Shown here piece by piece: positions 3,942-41,954 of a stretch of DNA of 64,000 nt. Made by a program: the position numbers and the translations under genes. The DNA lies in NCBI RefSeq assembly GCF_053078305.1, contig NZ_CP166879.1. One strand, given 5' to 3'. Below the pieces are notes generated by a model. The model saw only the letters and a list, made by a program, of their open reading frames with translations. It had not been told where the DNA came from and made no database searches. Every line of letters starts with the position of its first letter. The first letter of the stretch is position 1.

Positions 3942-5180
3942 ATGGCTGACACTCGCCCTGAACGTCGCTTTACGCGCATTGATCGTCTCCCGCCCTATGT
4001 TTTTAACATTACCGCTGAACTGAAAATGGCTGCGCGTCGGCGCGGCGAAGATATTATCGATTTCAGTATGGGTAACCCGGACGGTGCGACTCCGCCGCAT
4101 ATCGTCGAAAAATTATGTACTGTGGCCCAGCGCCCGGACACGCATGGTTACTCCACTTCACGCGGTATTCCGCGGCTACGTCGCGCCATTTCCCGCTGGT
4201 ATCAGGATCGCTACGACGTTGAAATCGACCCGGAATCAGAAGCCATCGTCACTATTGGTTCGAAAGAGGGCCTGGCGCATCTGATGCTGGCGACACTGGA
4301 TCACGGTGACACAGTGCTGGTGCCGAATCCAAGTTACCCCATTCATATTTACGGCGCGGTGATTGCCGGGGCTCAGGTACGCTCAGTGCCGCTGGTGGAA
4401 GGTGTCGATTTCTTCAACGAACTGGAGCGCGCCATTCGTGAAAGTTATCCGAAACCGAAGATGATGATCCTCGGCTTCCCGTCGAACCCAACCGCGCAAT
4501 GCGTGGAACTGGAGTTCTTCGAAAAGGTTGTGGCGCTGGCGAAACGCTACGATGTGCTGGTGGTCCATGACCTGGCCTATGCCGATATCGTCTACGATGG
4601 CTGGAAAGCGCCGTCAATCATGCAGGTGCCGGGTGCACGCGATGTGGCGGTCGAGTTCTTTACGCTGTCGAAAAGCTACAACATGGCGGGCTGGCGTATC
4701 GGCTTTATGGTTGGCAACAAAACGCTGGTCAGCGCCCTGGCACGTATTAAAAGCTATCACGATTACGGCACCTTTACGCCGTTGCAGGTGGCGGCGATTG
4801 CGGCACTCGAGGGCGATCAACAGTGCGTGCGCGACATTGCCGAACAGTACAAACGCCGCCGTGATGTATTGGTTAAAGGGCTGCATGAAGCGGGCTGGAT
4901 GGTCGAAATGCCGAAGGCTTCGATGTATGTCTGGGCGAAAATACCGGAACCGTATGCTGCCATGGGCTCGCTGGAATTTGCCAAGAAATTGCTTAACGAA
5001 GCGAAGGTCTGTGTCTCTCCGGGGATTGGCTTTGGCGACTATGGTGATACGCATGTGCGCTTTGCACTGATTGAAAACCGCGACCGTATTCGTCAGGCGA
5101 TTCGTGGGATTAAAGCGATGTTCCGTGCCGACGGTTTACTACCCGCCAGCAGCAAACATATTCACGAAAACGCGGAATAA
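3942..5180 (+). CDS. alaC: Glutamate-pyruvate aminotransferase (class I aminotransferase)
   Basis: 412-aa ORF with PLP-lysine motif [13 protein letters not shown]-12 synteny. Confidence 0.9.
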
Positions 5181-5671: not shown

Positions 5672-6592
5672 TTAAATGTATAACGACGATTCTCCCACCG
5701 GGCGCGTTTTAAAGCGACGGTGGATCCAGAGGTACTGCTCCGGTGCGCGCATGATTTCTTTCTCGATAATCTTGTTCATATAGGCAGCGGCTTGATTTTC
5801 ATCTGTCGGGTAGCCTTCCATCTCTGGGGTGATGAACAAACGATATCCGCTGTAATCCGCTTTTCTTACCATCGTTACGGTCAACATGGCTGCGCCAGAG
5901 AGACGGGAGAGAACATAGGTGCCATTGGTTGTGGCGACATTTTCTACCGCAAAGAACGGCGCGAAGGAGCTGCCTTTACGACCATAATCCTGATCGGGAG
6001 CAAACCATACCGCTTCACCTTTCTTCAGTGCACTGACAATGCCGCGCAGATTATTTCTGCCGATCATCGCTTTGTTAGAGCGCATGCGACCACGGGTCTG
6101 CACCCATTCCATCAGCTGATTATTATGTGGACGATAGGTAGCCATCATTGGCTGACAAAGTCCCATCACGCGGCCGCCCAGTTCCAGCGACATAAAATGG
6201 ACGCCGACAACCATTACGCCGCGATTTTGCATTTGTGCGCGTTTAAGGTTATCCAGCCCTTCAACATCAAACCATTTACGTACGCGACTGTCGGGCCAGA
6301 ACCACGCCATGCCGGTTTCTACCAGCGCCATGCCGAGTGAACGAAAGTTTTCGGCAATCATCTTCTCGCGTTCTTCCGCAGAATGCTGCGGGAAGCAAAG
6401 TTCCAGGTTTTTACGGGCGATAGATTCACGCCGTTTCAGGAATGGTCGCGCCATTGCGCCAATACGCGTGCCGAGAAAGCAGAGAACAGGATAAGGAAGC
6501 TGTACCCAAAGCCAGAGTACACCAAGCCCAAACCATGTGAGCCAGTAGCGAGGATGCAGAAACTCGCGGGAAAATTTGCATTGTGGAAACAT
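5672..6592 (-). CDS. lpxP: Lipid A palmitoleoyl acyltransferase
   Basis: ORF 5672-6658; protein matches LpxP/LpxL family from internal Met MFPQCKFSREFLHPRYW (about 306 aa). Confidence 0.85.
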   Translation of the reverse strand: MFPQCKFSREFLHPRYWLTWFGLGVLWLWVQLPYPVLCFLGTRIGAMARPFLKRRESIARKNLELCFPQHSAEEREKMIAENFRSLGMALVETGMAWFWPDSRVRKWFDVEGLDNLKRAQMQNRGVMVVGVHFMSLELGGRVMGLCQPMMATYRPHNNQLMEWVQTRGRMRSNKAMIGRNNLRGIVSALKKGEAVWFAPDQDYGRKGSSFAPFFAVENVATTNGTYVLSRLSGAAMLTVTMVRKADYSGYRLFITPEMEGYPTDENQAAAYMNKIIEKEIMRAPEQYLWIHRRFKTRPVGESSLYI

Positions 6593-6944
6593 AGTTACCT
6601 TCTGTAGATACGAATTGTTGTATCGCAGAAGATTCCATGTCGACAGCGGTACACTCAATTGATTAGGCCATCATGTACGACAATGGTTCCTGTAAAGAGT
6701 GTAAAGACTAGTCAGGACATAACCACGAGGAGCATGAATGCGGTGGCTCTACTTTATCACTGGCTGACTGCTTTCAGCTACTGATTATTAATCGTGCAAA
6801 GTAAAAAATTTTCCGTATGCAATAGTGTTGCATTTAACATGCTGTTTTCATTGATGCTTAGCAAAAATTGCCAGAGGTTAAGGATTGTCTTACTATTAAA
6901 GTGACTGAAGTTACAGGTTTTTTAGCGCGGCAGGAGGTTGAGCT

Positions 6945-35451: not shown

Positions 35452-35497
35452 AAGTTTTAATTTATACGCTTGCGTATTGATGGTCAAAACACGTTTT

Positions 35498-35813: not shown

Positions 35814-36359
35814 ATGATTATGCAACCACTTACATACCAACAGACTAGCGGATTTAGCCCGACTGCGGTGATAAATCGTTCTCAAACAAAACAGGCGCCA
35901 GGCCACGAAAAAATCCGTGATGCCGTCCGCGCCTGGTCGGCTGCAGATAATCAGGATGTTGTTGCCGCACTCATTGTGAATGAGTATCGGGAGCAGGGCG
36001 GCGGCACCATCGATTTCCCTGATGATGTCAGCCGTGCACGCCAGAAGCTGTTCCGCTTCCTCGATAACAAATTCGATTCTGAAAAATACCGAAATAACGT
36101 GCGTGAACTGACCCCGGCAATTCTGGCGGTACTACCGCTGGAATATCGCGGCCACCTGGTTGTGCAGGATAGCTTCATGGCTCGGCTGGCTGAAATGGAA
36201 AAGGAACTCAGTGAGGCAAAACAGGCTGTCATTCTCAACGCACCACGCCACCAGAAACTGAAGGAGATGAGTGAAGGCATTGTGTCGATGTTTCGTGTGG
36301 ACCCGGATCTGGCTGGTCCACTGATGGCGATGGTCACCACCATGCTGGGGGTAATATGA
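35814..36359 (+). CDS. YdaT-like protein (cII position)
   Basis: 181-aa ORF resembling Rac YdaT (EYREQGGG, LTPAILAVLPLEYRGHL). Confidence 0.45.
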   Translation: MIMQPLTYQQTSGFSPTAVINRSQTKQAPGHEKIRDAVRAWSAADNQDVVAALIVNEYREQGGGTIDFPDDVSRARQKLFRFLDNKFDSEKYRNNVRELTPAILAVLPLEYRGHLVVQDSFMARLAEMEKELSEAKQAVILNAPRHQKLKEMSEGIVSMFRVDPDLAGPLMAMVTTMLGVI

Positions 36360-36445
36360 CAGGTTCAGAAATGGCGAAAGCCGGTCTGCGCGAACATAAC
36401 CGACTTTCAGGTGCAAATCGTAACACACTCATTGCGGGAGGAATT

Positions 36446-37375
36446 ATGGCAAACACTGCTGAGATATTCAATTTTCCAGTGCCGGATGTGGCACAAAAGG
36501 AGCCGCGCGTGGCAGATCTCGATGATGGTTATACGCGCATTGCAAATGAGTTGCTGGAAGCTGTAATGCTGGCCGGATTAACACAGCACCAGCTTCTGGT
36601 CTTCCTGGCTGTCATGCGCAAAACATATGGCTTTAATAAAAAACTGGATTGGGTGAGCAACGAGCAACTTTCCGAATTGACCGGGATATTGCCGCACAAG
36701 TGTTCTGCTGCAAAAAGCGTTCTGGTAAAGCGTGGGATTCTTATTCAGAGCGGGCGGAATATCGGCATCAATAATGTGGTCAGTGAATGGTCAACATTAC
36801 CCGAATCAGGTAAGAAAAATAAAGTTTACCTGAAAGAGGTAAATTTACCTGAATTAGGTAAGAAAAGTTTACCCAAATCAGGTAAAGGCACTTACCCGAA
36901 TCAGGTAAACACAAAAGACAAACTAACAAAAGACAATATAAAACCTTTTTCGTCCGAGAATTCTGACGAATCCTCTGACCAGCCAGAAAATGCCCTTCCT
37001 GTGGTGAAACCGGATGCTGCGATTCAGAGCGGCAGCAAGTGGGGGACAGCAGAAGACCTGACCGCCGCAGAGTGGATGTTTGACATGGTGAAGACCATCG
37101 CGCCATCAGCCAGAAAACCGAATTTTGCAGGGTGGGCTAACGATATCCGCCTGATGCGTGAACGTGACGGACGTAACCACCGCGACATGTGCGTGCTGTT
37201 CCGCTGGGCATGCCAGGACAACTTCTGGTCCGGTAACGTGCTAAGTCCGGCCAAACTCCGCGACAAGTGGACCCAACTCGAAATCAACCGTAACAAGCAA
37301 CAGGCAGGCGTGACAGCTAGCAAACCAAAACTCGACCTGACAAACACAGACTGGATTTACGGGGTGGATCTATGA
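36446..37375 (+). CDS. Replication initiator O-like protein
   Basis: ORF 36356-37375; N-terminal domain resembles lambda O (ADLDDGYTRIANELLEA); internal iterons; likely start ATG 36446. Confidence 0.75.
   Translation: MANTAEIFNFPVPDVAQKEPRVADLDDGYTRIANELLEAVMLAGLTQHQLLVFLAVMRKTYGFNKKLDWVSNEQLSELTGILPHKCSAAKSVLVKRGILIQSGRNIGINNVVSEWSTLPESGKKNKVYLKEVNLPELGKKSLPKSGKGTYPNQVNTKDKLTKDNIKPFSSENSDESSDQPENALPVVKPDAAIQSGSKWGTAEDLTAAEWMFDMVKTIAPSARKPNFAGWANDIRLMRERDGRNHRDMCVLFRWACQDNFWSGNVLSPAKLRDKWTQLEINRNKQQAGVTASKPKLDLTNTDWIYGVDL
36797..36912. repeat. Phage replication origin iterons inside the O gene
   Basis: Four to five direct repeats of about 16 bp (tacccgaatcaggtaa and variants). Confidence 0.55.
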
Positions 37376-38073
37376 AAAACATCGCCGCACAGATGATTAA
37401 CTTTGACCGTGAGCAGATGCGTCGGATCGCCAACAACATGCCGGAACAGTACGACGAAAAGCCGCAGGTACAGCAGGTAGCGCAGATCATCAATGGTGTG
37501 TTCAGCCAGTTACTGGCAACTTTCCCGGCGAGCCTGGCTAACCGGGACCAGAACGAACTGAACGAAATCCGCCGCCAGTGGGTTCTGGCTTTCCGGGAAA
37601 ACGGGATCACCACAATGGAACAGGTTAACGCAGGAATGCGCGTAGCCCGTCGGCAGAATCGACCATTCCTGCCATCACCCGGGCAGTTTGTTGCCTGGTG
37701 CCGGGAAGAAGCATCCGTTACTGCCGGGCTGCCAAACGCCAGCGAGCTGGTTGATATGGTTTACGAGTATTGCCGGAAGCGTGGCCTGTATCCGGATGCA
37801 GAGTCTTATCCATGGAAATCAAACGCGCACTACTGGTTGGTTACCAACCTGTATCAGAACATGCGGGCCAATGCGTTGACTGACGCGGAATTACGGCGCA
37901 AGGCTGCCGATGAACTGTCCTGTATGACCGTGCGAATTAACCGTGGTGAGGCTATACCTGAACCAGTAAAACAACTTCCTGTCATGGGCGGTAGACCTCT
38001 AAATCGTGCACAGGCTCTGGCGAAGATCGCAGAAATCAAAGCTAAGTTTGGGCTGAAAGGAGCAAGTGTATGA
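37372..38073 (+). CDS. Replication protein P (helicase loader)
   Basis: 233-aa protein matching lambda P along its length. Confidence 0.9.
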   Translation: MKNIAAQMINFDREQMRRIANNMPEQYDEKPQVQQVAQIINGVFSQLLATFPASLANRDQNELNEIRRQWVLAFRENGITTMEQVNAGMRVARRQNRPFLPSPGQFVAWCREEASVTAGLPNASELVDMVYEYCRKRGLYPDAESYPWKSNAHYWLVTNLYQNMRANALTDAELRRKAADELSCMTVRINRGEAIPEPVKQLPVMGGRPLNRAQALAKIAEIKAKFGLKGASV

Positions 38074-38243
38074 CGGGCAAAGAGGCAATTATTCATTATC
38101 TGGAGACGCACAAGAGCTTCTGTGCGCCGGACGTTGTTGCGACAACAGGTGTGACATTAACCAGCATAAATCAGGCTGCGGCAAAAATGGCGCGGGCAGG
38201 AATCCTGGTCATTGATGGTAAGGTCTGGCGAACGTTTGTTTAA
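38070..38243 (+). CDS. Ren-like protein, C-terminally truncated (57 aa)
   Basis: Hand-translated ORF overlapping P stop: MTGKEAIIHYLETHKSFCAPDV... matches lambda Ren N-terminus, ends where the AT-rich cargo island begins. Confidence 0.45.
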   Translation: MTGKEAIIHYLETHKSFCAPDVVATTGVTLTSINQAAAKMARAGILVIDGKVWRTFV

Positions 38244-38389
38244 CGGTTAGCTACTCAGGATGATAGGGCGGGGCAAGTGAGTATGAAGCGGATTTTCAGG
38301 AATGCCGTCAGAGTTTGGAAATAAAGTGGGTTTTCTAGTGGCAAGAGACTTGATAATATTTAGTTCTTTAAATCCAAGGAGATAGGGTT

Positions 38390-38884
38390 ATGAGAAAATT
38401 TATTTTAGCCTTTGTCATAAGTGCCTCGTTTACAGCAAATGCTGGTGTAGAGAAGTTAGGGCCGTGGATAACAAAGTCTGAGATAAATAAAATGACTGAC
38501 CAGACTGACTTTGTGGCTCTTAATTTATCACCAGATTCATATAACAAAGCAGGTACTGATCGTGCAACTTCACTGGTGTTGCGTTGTAGTGATAACAAAA
38601 CAGATGCCTATTTATCATTCAATGATTATATGGGTTCGGACAACCCAAGAATTACAGTGCGGTTAGATGGCGGAAAGCCGGTCAAGAGTGTTTGGGGAGG
38701 TGGGGAAGGCGGTGATTCTGCATTTGCTCCACAACCAATACAATTTATAAAGACCTTGGCTAAGCATAAAAAAGCTATTTTTGGGTTTGAACCTTATGGA
38801 TCAACTATGCAAGTAGTTGAGTTTGACTTGTCTGAGATTGATAAGGTTGTGGAAAAAATTTCACAGTCTTGCAATTGGAAATGA
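38390..38884 (+). CDS. Secreted/periplasmic protein of unknown function (nin-region cargo)
   Basis: 164-aa ORF with N-terminal signal peptide, good RBS aaggag, low GC. Confidence 0.5.
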   Translation: MRKFILAFVISASFTANAGVEKLGPWITKSEINKMTDQTDFVALNLSPDSYNKAGTDRATSLVLRCSDNKTDAYLSFNDYMGSDNPRITVRLDGGKPVKSVWGGGEGGDSAFAPQPIQFIKTLAKHKKAIFGFEPYGSTMQVVEFDLSEIDKVVEKISQSCNWK

Positions 38885-38902
38885 CAAAAAAATTTCATAT
38901 GA

Positions 38903-38926
38903 ACCCAGTTGGCGCTGGGTTTTTTA
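38903..38926 (+). terminator. Rho-independent terminator
   Basis: cccag...ctggg hairpin followed by TTTTTT. Confidence 0.5.
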
Positions 38927-39255
38927 TTTCAGTAGCCAATAATGCATTCAAAATCTCTTACTTGAGAAACGGCCTATTTGAGATTTCAGTCGTGGCAGGA
39001 TGATCAGTTGATTCGAGTATTGACGCATTTGCGTCATAATAGATTGCAGTAATTTCATTGCACTACGTGAACTGGTCATGACTCGTCACCGATTTTGTAG
39101 GATGCTTAGAAGGAAAACTATTGAATGCCACTGCAGCAGCACAACAGCTGGAGGTAAAATGAAGAACAAATTGACGGGAATTAGCATAGATACAAATCAA
39201 AGCTCTTAGAGGGCTTTTATTCTATGATAAATGGACTTTGTTTGAGAGTGATATT

Positions 39256-39582
39256 ATGAAACCGAAGAAACTAAGAGCTGAGCAGCAGTACCATTTAGAC
39301 CTTGAATTAGTAAAGAAGAAGCCAGCGAACCGCACCGAGGCAAAAGCCCATTTGGCGGCACAATTACGGATTAGCAAGTACAAGACGCAGGCCTCTTCCA
39401 AAATTCGCGTTGGTAGTTTCAAGGGAAGAAAGAAGGTGCATTTTAGCCAGGCGGAAGAAGATGCTAGGAAGGCAATGGCTAAAGCTAATGCAGTTAGGTT
39501 TTCAGAAGGTGAGGTTGAATCCGTTGATACAGAAAGAATATCAGAAAGTAACAAACGCTGGCGCGGGAGAACCGCTGACTAA
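39256..39582 (+). CDS. Small lysine-rich basic protein of unknown function
   Basis: ORF 39238-39582 (TTG); likely ATG 39256 (MKPKKLRAEQQ...). Confidence 0.4.
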   Translation: MKPKKLRAEQQYHLDLELVKKKPANRTEAKAHLAAQLRISKYKTQASSKIRVGSFKGRKKVHFSQAEEDARKAMAKANAVRFSEGEVESVDTERISESNKRWRGRTAD

Positions 39583-39686
39583 TGTCTGATTTAGATATTG
39601 CAGCAAAGCTGTATGAAGAAAACACATTCATGGGCAGATGTGACATTACAGGGAGTTTTAGTTTTCAATTGCTGAAGACATCGAAT

Positions 39687-39710
39687 CATATTCATATTCA
39701 TATTCATATT
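39687..39710. repeat. Hexanucleotide tandem repeat (CATATT)x4
   Basis: Four perfect tandem copies 17 bp upstream of the ATG at 39728. Confidence 0.9.
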
Positions 39711-39727
39711 GTTTTGAGGGGTAATTT

Positions 39728-40273
39728 ATGGATGCAGGGATAGCCTCAGTTGTCGCCGCAATTATTGCCGCAGCTGCAGCTGGAGTGGGGCTTGTTATCA
39801 CTAAGGAGAATAAAACATCTGAGTTTCGGCAAGCGTGGATAGATGGTTTAAGGGAAGAGTTAGCCGAATTGATGGAGAACTTTTTACAATTACGCACGAC
39901 TCCGCCTGAGAAGCTCCCTGAGGTGGCTGGAAAAATTTATTTTCTTTCCGCAAAAGTGAAGCTTAGGTTATCCAGTAAAAACTTAACTAATGAAGAGTCT
40001 CAGCTTTTGAAAATCATTGAGGATTACATTTTAAAAATGGATCGCTCATCTAACATTACAGATGTGGTCAGACAGTATTTTGAATATAGTTCCAGTGTTC
40101 TTAAAACTGAGTGGGAGAGAGTGAAGCGAGGCGAGAAAAAATACAGAGTCGCTATCACGGTTTCGTACTCAATATTGGTTTTTTTGGGGCTCTATTTTGC
40201 TTCACGTTTCATTCCAGCGATAAGTGAAAAAATCTTAGAAATTATAGAGTTTTTAAATTATTCGTTGTTCTGA
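39728..40273 (+). CDS. Membrane protein of unknown function (TM helices at both termini)
   Basis: 181-aa ORF with RBS gagggg; hydrophobic N- and C-terminal segments flanking a charged central region. Confidence 0.5.
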   Translation: MDAGIASVVAAIIAAAAAGVGLVITKENKTSEFRQAWIDGLREELAELMENFLQLRTTPPEKLPEVAGKIYFLSAKVKLRLSSKNLTNEESQLLKIIEDYILKMDRSSNITDVVRQYFEYSSSVLKTEWERVKRGEKKYRVAITVSYSILVFLGLYFASRFIPAISEKILEIIEFLNYSLF

Positions 40274-40464
40274 TGACAAGCTTTGATTTTCCATAATCAA
40301 CTTGTCATAATTAAGTCACCGGAGCCTGAACAACTCCGGTGACTTCTGCGCTAAACGGGGACGTTTATGCGCACATACAATCCAAACTCTCTTCTCCCTT
40401 CACAGATGCAGAAATGTACCTGCGATTTTTTGCATCCAGCGTTTGACCTCTGCGGAGGTGAATC

Positions 40465-40920
40465 GTGAACCTCCTACAAGATGGCATCAAATTGCATCGC
40501 GGTAACTTCACCGCTATCGGCCAGCAGATCCAGCCTTATCTGGAGAACGGAAAATGCTTTCGCATGGTGCTTAAACCGTGGCGTGAGAAACGCAGTCTTT
40601 CCCAGAATGCACTCAGCCACATGTGGTACAGCGAAATCAGTGAATACCTCATCAGCAGGGGGAAATCGTTCGCTACTTCAGCATGGGTAAAAGATGCTCT
40701 CAAACACACATACCTCGGTTATGAAACCAAGGACCTGGTTGATGTCGTAACCGGCGAAATCACTACTATCCAGTCGTTACGCCATACCTCCGATCTTGAT
40801 ACCGGAGAGATGTATGTCTTCCTGTGTAAGGTTGAAGCCTGGGCGGTGAATATTGGCTGCCACCTGACTATTCCGCAGAGCTGCGAGTTCCAGCTGCTGC
40901 GCGACAAGCAGGAGGCGTAA
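40465..40920 (+). CDS. NinB-family recombination protein (DLP12 YbcN-like)
   Basis: 151-aa ORF with RSLSQN motif. Confidence 0.8.
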
Positions 40921-41090
40921 TGGCTACACCGCTTATTCGTGTCATGAACGGACACATCTACAGAGTACCAAATCGTCGTAAGCGTAAACCGGAGCTGAAG
41001 CCTTCCGAAATACCAACACTGCTCGGATATACCGCCAGCCTGGTTGATAAAAAATGGTTGCGACTGGCAGCAAGGAGGAATCATGGCTGA
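40920..41090 (+). CDS. NinE-like small protein
   Basis: 56-aa hand-translated ORF overlapping neighbours; position as in DLP12. Confidence 0.4.
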   Translation: MATPLIRVMNGHIYRVPNRRKRKPELKPSEIPTLLGYTASLVDKKWLRLAARRNHG

Positions 41091-41373
41091 TTTGAGAAAA
41101 GCAGCGCGTGGTCGGGAATGCCAGGTAAGAATCCCTGGCGTATGTAATGGCAACCCTGAAACGTCTGTACTGGCACATATCCGGCTGACTGGATTGTGCG
41201 GCACCGGTACCAAACCGCCAGACCTGATTGCCACCATTGCATGTTCTGCCTGCCACGACGAAATCGACCGCCGCACACATTTTGTCGATGCTGCATATGC
41301 AAAAGAATGCGCGCTGGAAGGTATGGCGAGAACACAGGTTATCTGGCTGAAAGAGGGGGTTATTAAGGCGTGA
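41083..41373 (+). CDS. YbcO-like nin-region protein (DUF1364, putative nuclease)
   Basis: ORF 41044-41373; start at [21 protein letters not shown]. Confidence 0.6.
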
Positions 41374-41732
41374 ATACCTACAGCATCACATTACCCTGGC
41401 CTCCGAGCAATAATCGCTATTACCGCCATAATCGCGGGCGCACGCACGTCAGCGCAGAGGGGCAGGCATACCGCGATAACGTCGCCCGAATCATTAAAAA
41501 CGCAATGCTGGATATCGGCCTGGCTATGCCTGTGAAAATCCGCATTGAGTGCCACATGCCGGATCGCCGTCGCCGTGACCTGGATAATCTGCAAAAAGCC
41601 GCTTTTGACACACTCACTAAAGCAGGTTTCTGGCTGGATGATGCTCAAGTCGTTGATTACCGCGTTGTGAAGATGCCTGTTACCAAAGGTGGGAGGCTGG
41701 AACTGACCATCACCGAAATGGGGAATGAATGA
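41370..41732 (+). CDS. rusA: Holliday junction resolvase RusA
   Basis: 120-aa protein matching RusA family. Confidence 0.85.
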
Positions 41733-41869
41733 TGTTTGAGTTTTATATGGCAGAACTTCTTCGCCACCGCTGGGGGCGTCTGCGCTTATATCGTTTCCCC
41801 GGTTCTGTTTTGACCGATTACCGAATACTGAAGAGTTACGCCAAAACCCTGACAGGAGCAGGAGTATGA
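41729..41869 (+). CDS. YlcG-like small protein
   Basis: 46-aa ORF ([28 protein letters not shown]...) overlapping rusA stop; position as in DLP12. Confidence 0.4.
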
Positions 41870-41954
41870 AGTCAGAGATAACAATCAACTAATACTGTTT
41901 TGTTGATTTTTGCTTGTAATTGGCGTTCTGGTCTGATTTTTGTGGAGTAAGTTG

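Follow-up and report, generated by a model that had tools for sequence, protein, structure and literature searches.

A mosaic accessory slot between ren and the ninB position of a lambdoid Escherichia coli prophage, and a widespread membrane protein family with a possible role in anti-phage defence

Lambdoid prophages often encode accessory genes after their replication genes, which is partly why hepS, a validated defence gene that sits after the replication genes of Gifsy-1, was picked in a 2026 Nature paper (PMC13043305). The interval between ren and ninB, which measures 73 bp in phage lambda, is occupied in the DLP12 prophage of Escherichia coli K-12 by emrE, ylcJ, ybcK, ybcL, and ybcM, lying there between renD and ylcH-ybcN. 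The same interval was analysed here in a stretch of 64,000 nucleotides from contig NZ_CP166879.1 (RefSeq assembly GCF_053078305.1; hereafter the window), which contains a lambdoid E. coli prophage of the DLP12/phage-82 type. Three intact genes, designated A, B, and C, are found in this interval, and it can be stated with high confidence that positions 38315-40282 are an accessory slot filled with separate cassettes and gene wrecks and not one three-gene unit. The last of the three genes, C, encodes a predicted inner-membrane protein of a very large, strongly conserved family which is absent from Pfam, NCBIfam, PADLOC, and PHROGs and whose members occur near prophage ends and defence systems. 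The best overall explanation arrived at, a mosaic slot in which C would serve as a membrane defence, is held at even confidence.

Among described systems, gene C resembles in kind lambda RexB and SieB, P22 SieA, HK97 gp15, and T4 Imm, which are likewise small inner-membrane proteins encoded by stand-alone prophage accessory genes at similar sites, the likeness being drawn from general knowledge and from two publications (PMC3594210, PMC10883804). None of them has sequence or profile similarity to C, which differs further in carrying a transmembrane helix at each end with a predicted cytoplasmic four-helix bundle between. The slot itself is of an ordinary and already known kind, that of accessory genes placed after replication genes, and its value lies in the pointer it provides to the C family. 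It shares with the renD-ylcH interval of DLP12 and with the HepS region of Gifsy-1 a position between the replication genes or ren and the gene at the ninB position, a base composition that departs from that of the flanks, and an accessory cargo which differs among sibling prophages and is not needed for phage growth; in contrast, neither has a cargo gene in common with the window. Of the features by which a moron is usually recognised, the insertion between genes that are adjacent in related phages and the deviant base composition are both seen, and an own terminator is clear for gene A.

A preliminary description of this DNA had remarked that DLP12 carries unrelated cargo at the same junction and had concluded that the slot is variable, and both statements held when the ren-ninB interval was compared, as lambda, K-12, the window, and the E. 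coli strains JX2, STEC409, and 3PT all differ. The slot of strain JX2 holds a GNAT acetyltransferase, an Arc/Arc/antirepressor module, and hypothetical genes, that of STEC409 holds gene A with a HEPN protein and its partner, and that of 3PT holds gene A with a gene of 66 codons. In sibling prophages, as seen in STEC409, the sub-slot taken up here by B and C is filled by an overlapping gene pair (positions 4106-4902 of the locus retrieved) for a HEPN protein of 138 residues (phrog_5737), matching the PADLOC candidate PDC-M28A at 1.8e-7, and a protein of 133 residues (phrog_5760), a pair which is probably a defence or toxin-antitoxin module. An identification of this HEPN cargo with HepS was considered and rejected because no sequence link was found; the HEPN protein has no sequence relative among solved structures.

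The variable segment, of about 1.97 kb, extends from the end of the ren homology (left junction at about 38315) to the ylcH-ybcN block (right junction at about 40283). The island first drawn at 38244-40460 thus did contain an insert of low guanine plus cytosine (GC) content, as had been described, although its bounds were too generous, the last ~180 bp (40283-40460) aligning as conserved nin-region DNA that is common to phage 82 and DLP12 and belongs to the ylcH/orf33-ybcN block. The GC content of the segment is 0.395, compared with 0.506 for 36356-38314 and 0.502 for 40283-41900, and a sliding-window profile agrees with these values and is not uniform. Genes A and C lie at 0.392 and 0.396, respectively, and B is intermediate at 0.459. 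The intactness of the three genes, their sizes, a Shine-Dalgarno sequence for each, the signal peptide of A, the basic character of B, and the hydrophobic ends of C were all given correctly in the preliminary description (Table 1); its proposal of a single three-gene island has to be abandoned, because A, B, and C have independent distributions and two gene wrecks lie among them.

The distributions were determined over 5,426 complete E. coli genomes. Some match to the interval is present in 2,829 of these, mostly at 90-95% identity and probably stemming from the conserved right end or from the ren part, and the whole interval is present at 99.3% identity or above in only 14, being 100% identical in E. 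coli O112ab:H8 and two other complete genomes. Gene C is confined to the same number of genomes (14), as against 83 which carry gene A with the ren pseudogene and, outside the full island, other partners. No C relative adjoins gene B in the contexts examined, namely four B relatives and E. coli FDAARGOS_1277, and C relatives for their part stand alone, with no conserved partner at more than 150 loci, the sole exception being a fragment resembling B beside a DNA polymerase III theta homologue at one C-relative locus. The reading in which A, B, and C, or B and C, constitute one mobile functional system, be it a toxin-antitoxin or a sensor-effector system, could draw on the arrangement A, B, decayed theta, C being the same at 98-100% identity in all 14 E. 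coli genomes and in all 12 IMG/VR contigs with this C allele. That set is nonetheless a single recent haplotype, A is found with other neighbours in 69 further genomes, and pseudogene wrecks separate the three genes, so that the one-system reading is already largely refuted by the distributions and scarcely deserves credence. A B-C pair was rejected on the same distributions.

Two wrecks mark the seams within the slot. The first (38964-39160) resembles, at an identity of 75-84%, the 3'-terminal parts of genes annotated as P22AR_C, which hundreds of E. coli genomes carry. The sequence common to gene-A carriers stops at about 39034, and from about 39130 onwards the alignment is with lambdoid prophages of Citrobacter, Klebsiella, and Raoultella, running through a hairpin and gene B into approximately 12 codons of theta. 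The second wreck is a decayed theta gene, recognised by alignment to intact theta at three loci and to the theta-C arrangement at two others. Compared with phage theta homologues (P1 HOT, PF06440), it starts identically and overlaps the stop codon of B as in intact B-theta pairs; it differs in being a pseudogene, the intact open reading frame of ~76-85 codons expected of theta/HOT being absent from the window. It lies directly upstream of C, as it does in the closest C relatives outside E. coli (59% identity). Since the decayed copy aligns with the theta-C arrangement of these relatives, B, theta, and C must once have been contiguous, and the idea that C was acquired separately from B was softened for this reason.

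Given these wrecks, the interval might be thought of as decaying junk in which the three open reading frames are functionless leftovers, the more so as ren, theta, and the antirepressor gene are all ruined, a nearby porin gene is frameshifted, and IS1 has inserted into the island in two strains. Against such a reading, A, B, and C are of full length and retain all family-invariant residues, no difference in the A protein was seen among the gene-A loci retrieved and the gene is at least 99% identical at the DNA level in 80 of the 83 carriers, and the plaque-forming phage IdasGreatGrand has the same ren allele and gene A; functionless leftovers are accordingly very improbable. It is proposed instead that illegitimate and homologous exchanges have filled the slot with separate modules: gene A and its terminator, what is left of an antirepressor gene at its 3' end, B with decayed theta, and the stand-alone gene C, in that order.

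The hydrophobic helices of C span residues ~3-25 and 141-165. Its AlphaFold2 model (pLDDT 90) is all-helical and confident. It begins with a long helix that includes the first transmembrane helix and closes with another long one that runs into the second; two shorter helices lie between them, and together the four would form a four-helix bundle on a two-helix membrane anchor, the first helix being rich in Ala and Gly. The family alignment yields the motifs KExKxSEFRQxW, LR, and LKxEWxRVKxGE: K26, E27, K29, S31, E32, F33, R34, Q35, W37, and R42 are invariant just after the first membrane helix; L79 is invariant and R80 nearly so; and just before the second membrane helix W129, V132, K133, G135, and E136 are invariant, with L125, K126, E128, and R131 nearly invariant. 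Conservation is uneven, at 3.9, 3.2, and 2.5 bits for the segments near the membrane compared with 1.0-1.8 bits for the distal ones. A cytoplasmic location is predicted for the bundle, which would leave the two short termini outside, because each membrane helix has basic residues on the side towards the bundle and because some relatives have Cys-rich C-terminal tails. The possibility of extra domains in the longer relatives was rejected, the extensions being low-complexity or Cys-rich tails.

The family was sized by a profile search, which returned 4,747 representatives at 50% clustering with E <= 1e-3, of which 750 fall below 1e-30. With two strict peptide patterns, relatives were located in 143 species-representative genomes, several phyla being present among the 80 listed, and the family spans Proteobacteria, Campylobacterota, Nitrospira, Acidobacteria, and Bacteroidota. 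No Pfam family, including superinfection-exclusion families such as SieB, matched gene C or 48 of its relatives at E <= 0.001, and gene C found no match in NCBIfam, PADLOC, or PHROGs, nor in the PDB by sequence or by profile. One AlphaFold DB relative (33% identity) is labelled DUF4760, a family with no match in C or the 48 relatives even at E <= 0.1. Hence, where the preliminary description had recognised none of the three proteins, this stands for C, which is without any family; it does not stand for A, which has a VasI domain and an IalB-like fold, or for B, which corresponds to phrog_14068.

By structure, C comes closest to sensor bundles. The order of a transmembrane helix, an antiparallel four-helix bundle, and a transmembrane helix is the one also found in NarQ/NarX, QseE, and the 4HB_MCP chemoreceptor domains; in these, however, the bundle is periplasmic and feeds a cytoplasmic output domain, whereas that of C is predicted to be cytoplasmic and has no output domain attached. 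A periplasmic sensor of the NarQ or chemoreceptor type was therefore tried and rejected, on the grounds of the charge distribution, the lack of an output domain, and fold scores which do not reach significance.

In Shewanella waksmanii (NZ_JAEH01000005.1), a C relative (6001-6639 of the locus retrieved) is situated exactly between a complete Olokun system (OloA-OloB) and a complete Gabija system (GajA-GajB), with gaps of 77 bp to OloB and 192 bp to GajA, the four components being identified at E-values of 1e-121 to 1e-265. In Marinobacter, a C relative stands among genes for a TIR effector, ThsB, and SocA, and on metagenomic contigs C relatives adjoin VapBC and ParE. Prophage contexts include the nin region of a Klebsiella lambdoid prophage, a Pantoea prophage, and the edge of a Limnobaculum prophage beside an integrase gene, and a further relative lies in a small integrase islet of Rhodoferax. 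A systematic sample of 12 species-representative genomes, taken without a matched control, gave a strong PADLOC match among the four nearest open reading frames in five, namely a type IIG restriction enzyme, an NsnB-like ATPase, a ThsB-like TIR protein, and two methyltransferases. Relatives are also carried by 123 IMG/VR viral contigs. Across 78 C-relative loci, the only recurrent neighbours were a tyrosine integrase within 2.5 kb (21/78) and a theta homologue (15/78), the latter occurring on either side of C-family genes and in several cases truncated. The adjacency of theta and C may reflect either a common insertion hotspot or a functional link.

This adjacency is one of the grounds for the main rival explanation, in which C, together with B, would be an early function of the lytic cycle (a replication-linked membrane protein or one concerned with the timing of takeover) and would give the lysogen no protection. 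Both genes belong to the rightward early operon, where terminator-like hairpins precede them. Within the window C showed no convincing promoter of its own, and most contexts of B have it in translational coupling with theta. A lytic function sits poorly, on the other hand, with the C relatives of chromosomal islands other than phages, where they lie between Olokun and Gabija or in the company of TIR and Thoeris genes, and with those beside integrases at prophage ends. It is likewise disfavoured by the outcome of a tblastn search of C against 50,697 deposited phage genomes, in which no relative was found, and by the rarity of C among E. coli genomes, and the decay of the theta gene beside C, both here and in the closest relatives, implies that C does not need theta. 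This rival is consequently considered improbable.

The reading preferred for C is that it shields the lysogen from other phages at the membrane. Such a membrane-level role in abortive infection or exclusion is suggested by traits that are usual in defence or exclusion genes of prophages, namely the stand-alone habit of the family, its patchy distribution, its sites at prophage ends and in defence islands, the contrast between conserved membrane-proximal and variable distal parts, and the first helix of small residues. Detection of an infection cue would fall to the variable distal end of the bundle, and the invariant charged and aromatic juxtamembrane site, acting with the Ala/Gly-rich first helix, would then either alter membrane permeability, leading to abortive infection, or block entry of the genome. 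A defence or exclusion role for C in general is given somewhat less than even to even confidence. The fuller proposition, that C represents a widespread and so far unrecognised family of single-protein anti-phage defences, in which a variable tip senses and a juxtamembrane site composed of KExKxSEFRQxW and LKxEWxRVKxGE triggers permeabilisation or an entry block, is offered as a tentative one, less likely than not. Should C be a defence, a compact single-gene system, easily tested in E. coli, would be added to those known.

A number of observations weigh against a defence role and deserve fair consideration. The adjacency of theta could point to a replication-linked role instead. One C relative occupies an ordinary metabolic neighbourhood, the methyltransferase matches near C relatives are generic, and the neighbour sample in which they were found lacks a matched control. 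The excess of C near prophage ends, with 35% within 5 kb compared with 22% expected (Kolmogorov-Smirnov p = 0.013), is real but weak. The best PADLOC-DB v2.0 hit of C was to LeoBC with an E-value of 0.029, which, like that of B (Cas4, 0.013) and the absence of any hit for A, does not amount to a significant match. The closest structural matches of C have TM-scores of 0.5-0.75 with Foldseek E-values of 0.006 or worse, which are non-significant, and these bundles are periplasmic; the topology assigned to C derives solely from the positive-inside rule. As regards its putative expression in the lysogen, a promoter scan of the window found no sigma-70-like site with a score of at least 9 of 12 upstream of A or C, the best upstream of C scoring 8 of 12, and C may be read solely from the antiterminated early transcript. 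Moreover, the strong hairpins after C have no U-tract; terminators with a U-tract are present for the C relatives in Klebsiella and Pantoea.

The (CATATT)4 repeat preceding C is polymorphic. There are four copies in the window and three in E. coli AR_0061, and the form shorter by 6 bp is present in 8 of the 14 carrier genomes; the copy number could tune expression by way of promoter or leader spacing.

Gene A is a roaming temperate-phage gene that is often found beside repressor genes. Its homologues occur in lambdoid, P2-like, Brucella, Pasteurella, and Acinetobacter phages, lying directly downstream of the repressor gene in Brucella phage BiPBO1 and Klebsiella phage ST11-VIM1phi8.1, and at a moron position beside a Hok/Mok-like gene in a P2-like phage. 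The protein matches phrog_1848 (2.7e-70), has a predicted signal-peptide cleavage site after ANA at residue 18, and contains two cysteines, C66 and C161, which are invariant in the family alignment. Its match to Pfam VasI (PF11319; i-E 6.2e-6) is weak and confined to model positions 78-184, covering the C-terminal two thirds of the protein, and the score against the VasI equivalog TIGR03360 is 14.4 bits, below the cutoff of 124.2. Searching the PDB by sequence gave chance-level matches only. The AlphaFold2 model (pLDDT 87) is confident outside the signal peptide, and its only significant Foldseek neighbour in the PDB is Bartonella IalB (3DTD; E 7.6e-5, TM-score 0.57-0.68). Gene A is thus akin to VasI/TagO and to IalB in being secreted and mostly beta, with a C-terminal VasI match and a predicted IalB fold; it differs from VasI/TagO in falling below the equivalog cutoff and in being phage-encoded outside any type VI secretion cluster, and from IalB in sharing only ~10% sequence identity with it. 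The RefSeq/PGAP name “type VI secretion system-associated protein TagO” is, to judge from these profile scores, a weak domain label only and unsupported as a family assignment. As a side observation, the IS1 elements mentioned above are those of E. coli strains NZ_CP084055.1 and NZ_CP104112.1, one of the two insertions lying inside the stretch matched by gene A.

The secreted nature of A, together with fold matches to the Bartonella invasion-associated protein B and to the VasI domain of type VI secretion clusters, has its place in a further explanation, according to which the cargo serves lysogenic conversion towards the host environment (envelope, stress, serum, or competitor resistance) with gene A as the main actor. 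The slot of K-12 DLP12, with its envelope protein EmrE and periplasmic YbcL, would suit this explanation, and so would the porin and iss/bor genes possessed by the same prophage family. Nevertheless, no type VI secretion genes were found near gene A, its neighbours being phage replication and nin genes; the fold matches are to proteins without known biochemical function; and the explanation is silent on C, whose relatives sit with anti-phage systems. Conversion of this kind is regarded as unlikely for the cargo as a whole. Gene A may well be expressed from the prophage and act in the cell envelope, and an envelope role in the lysogen is likely; taken together, an envelope or exclusion role for it is advanced as doubtful.

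Last of the three, gene B, whose product is read as a small basic early protein, matches phrog_14068 (3.5e-64) and belongs to a narrow family of 44 clusters, nearly all of them from Enterobacterales, in which the C-terminus ...NKRWRGRTAD is invariant. No relative of the family was found in Pfam, searches of the PDB by sequence and profile gave chance-level matches only, and tblastn of B against the 50,697 phage records returned nothing. Within the nin region of lambdoid prophages B keeps a constant place, before DNA_pol3_theta or ninB and mostly with theta directly after it, and in Citrobacter, Klebsiella, and Raoultella prophages its stop codon overlaps the theta start (TAATG), an overlap kept in the window. 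Gene B is probably a partner of the theta homologue, which it has lost here. The pairing of B and theta is conserved in enterobacterial lambdoid phages and has apparently not been studied before. Literature searches for the RefSeq protein accessions of the three genes produced nothing. The preliminary description had conceded that its cargo reading would suffer if these proved to be common, conserved nin-region genes of known housekeeping function, and B is indeed common and positionally conserved there, with no known housekeeping function to its name.

The two hairpin terminators of the preliminary description were recovered as terminator-like hairpins, located after gene A and upstream of B (Table 1), and the region as a whole has 6 such sites, compared with 2.3 +/- 1.6 in shuffled sequences. 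The hairpin upstream of B is kept just upstream of the B gene in the Citrobacter, Klebsiella, and Raoultella prophages, with compensatory changes in its stem (AAGCTCT/AGGGCTT compared with AGGCCC/GGGCCT). It is probably a terminator of the tR2 type, and its retention suggests a maintained terminator or RNA element. No Rfam family matched anywhere in 37900-40700.

Table 1. Features located within and at the edges of the accessory slot, in window coordinates
Feature	Position	Strand	Remarks
ren pseudogene	38070..38338	+	Open reading frame 38070-38243; lambda-ren homology to ~38314
Gene A, secreted protein of 164 residues	38390..38884	+	VasI/IalB-type beta fold (predicted); Sec signal peptide; Shine-Dalgarno sequence
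Intrinsic terminator after gene A	38901..38922	+	9-bp stem and T-run; -12.2 kcal/mol, z = -3.2
Antirepressor 3'-end wreck (P22AR C-terminal domain)	38964..39160	+	No intact open reading frame left
Hairpin with T-run upstream of gene B	39185..39226 (scan stem 39199-39217)	+	Fold z-score only -1.85
Gene B, basic protein of 108 residues	39256..39582	+	27 K+R, net charge +13; Shine-Dalgarno sequence
Decayed DNA polymerase III theta (HolE/HOT-like) gene	39582..39686	+	~12 first codons intact; ~100-bp internal deletion; diverged 3' part
(CATATT)4 hexamer repeat	39687..39710	+	Ends 17 bp before the start codon of C
Gene C, predicted inner-membrane protein of 181 residues	39728..40273	+	First transmembrane helix, four-helix bundle, second transmembrane helix; Shine-Dalgarno sequence
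Two strong hairpins, 40273-40308 and 40313-40345	40273..40345	+	Pair folds at -33.2 kcal/mol, z = -6.5
orf33/ylcH, 33 codons	40367..40468	+	Annotated in phage 82, K-12 DLP12 (ylcH), and the identical RefSeq locus; not cargo

At the left edge of the slot, ren is cut to 57 codons, as had been described, by a TAA in place of the lambda TAC. The alignment to lambda ren shows a 1-bp deletion further on; the intact open reading frame of 96 codons is absent, and its last ~45 bp are replaced. The nonsense codon lies ~70 bp upstream of the true left sequence junction. At a locus of 100% identity, RefSeq likewise treats the gene as a pseudogene, labelling it “protein ren, frameshifted; internal stop”.

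At the right edge, the second of the two strong hairpins belongs to the conserved nin block outside the island, as does a promoter-like site at 40283-40311 (TTGATT-17-CATAAT with an upstream TG), which is followed by an inverted repeat with a 12-bp stem directly before ylcH/orf33. Both the site and the repeat are kept in phage 82, STEC409, and strain 3PT, and the phage 82 record X92588 annotates here a -35, a -10, and a “possible regulator-binding site” (the repeat), followed by orf33 and orf151. The ylcH gene overlaps the start of ybcN (40465-40920), the gene at the ninB position.

The surroundings are those of a lambdoid early region. Upstream of ren lie a cI-type repressor gene (minus strand, end at 35487), cro, a gene for a YdaT-domain protein at the cII position, O, and P (37372-38073), and downstream of the slot ylcH/orf33 and ybcN are followed by ninE, ybcO, rusA, ylcG, quuD, a porin gene, and the lysis genes. 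The gene at the cII position (35814-36359) bears the RefSeq name “toxin YdaT domain-containing” and is not of the lambda CII type. Finally, the nmpC-like porin gene (42528-43626, minus strand) is longer by an inserted 1 bp than its intact 1098-bp counterpart in NZ_CP062910 and is therefore split into two overlapping open reading frames, reflecting either a pseudogene or a sequencing error.

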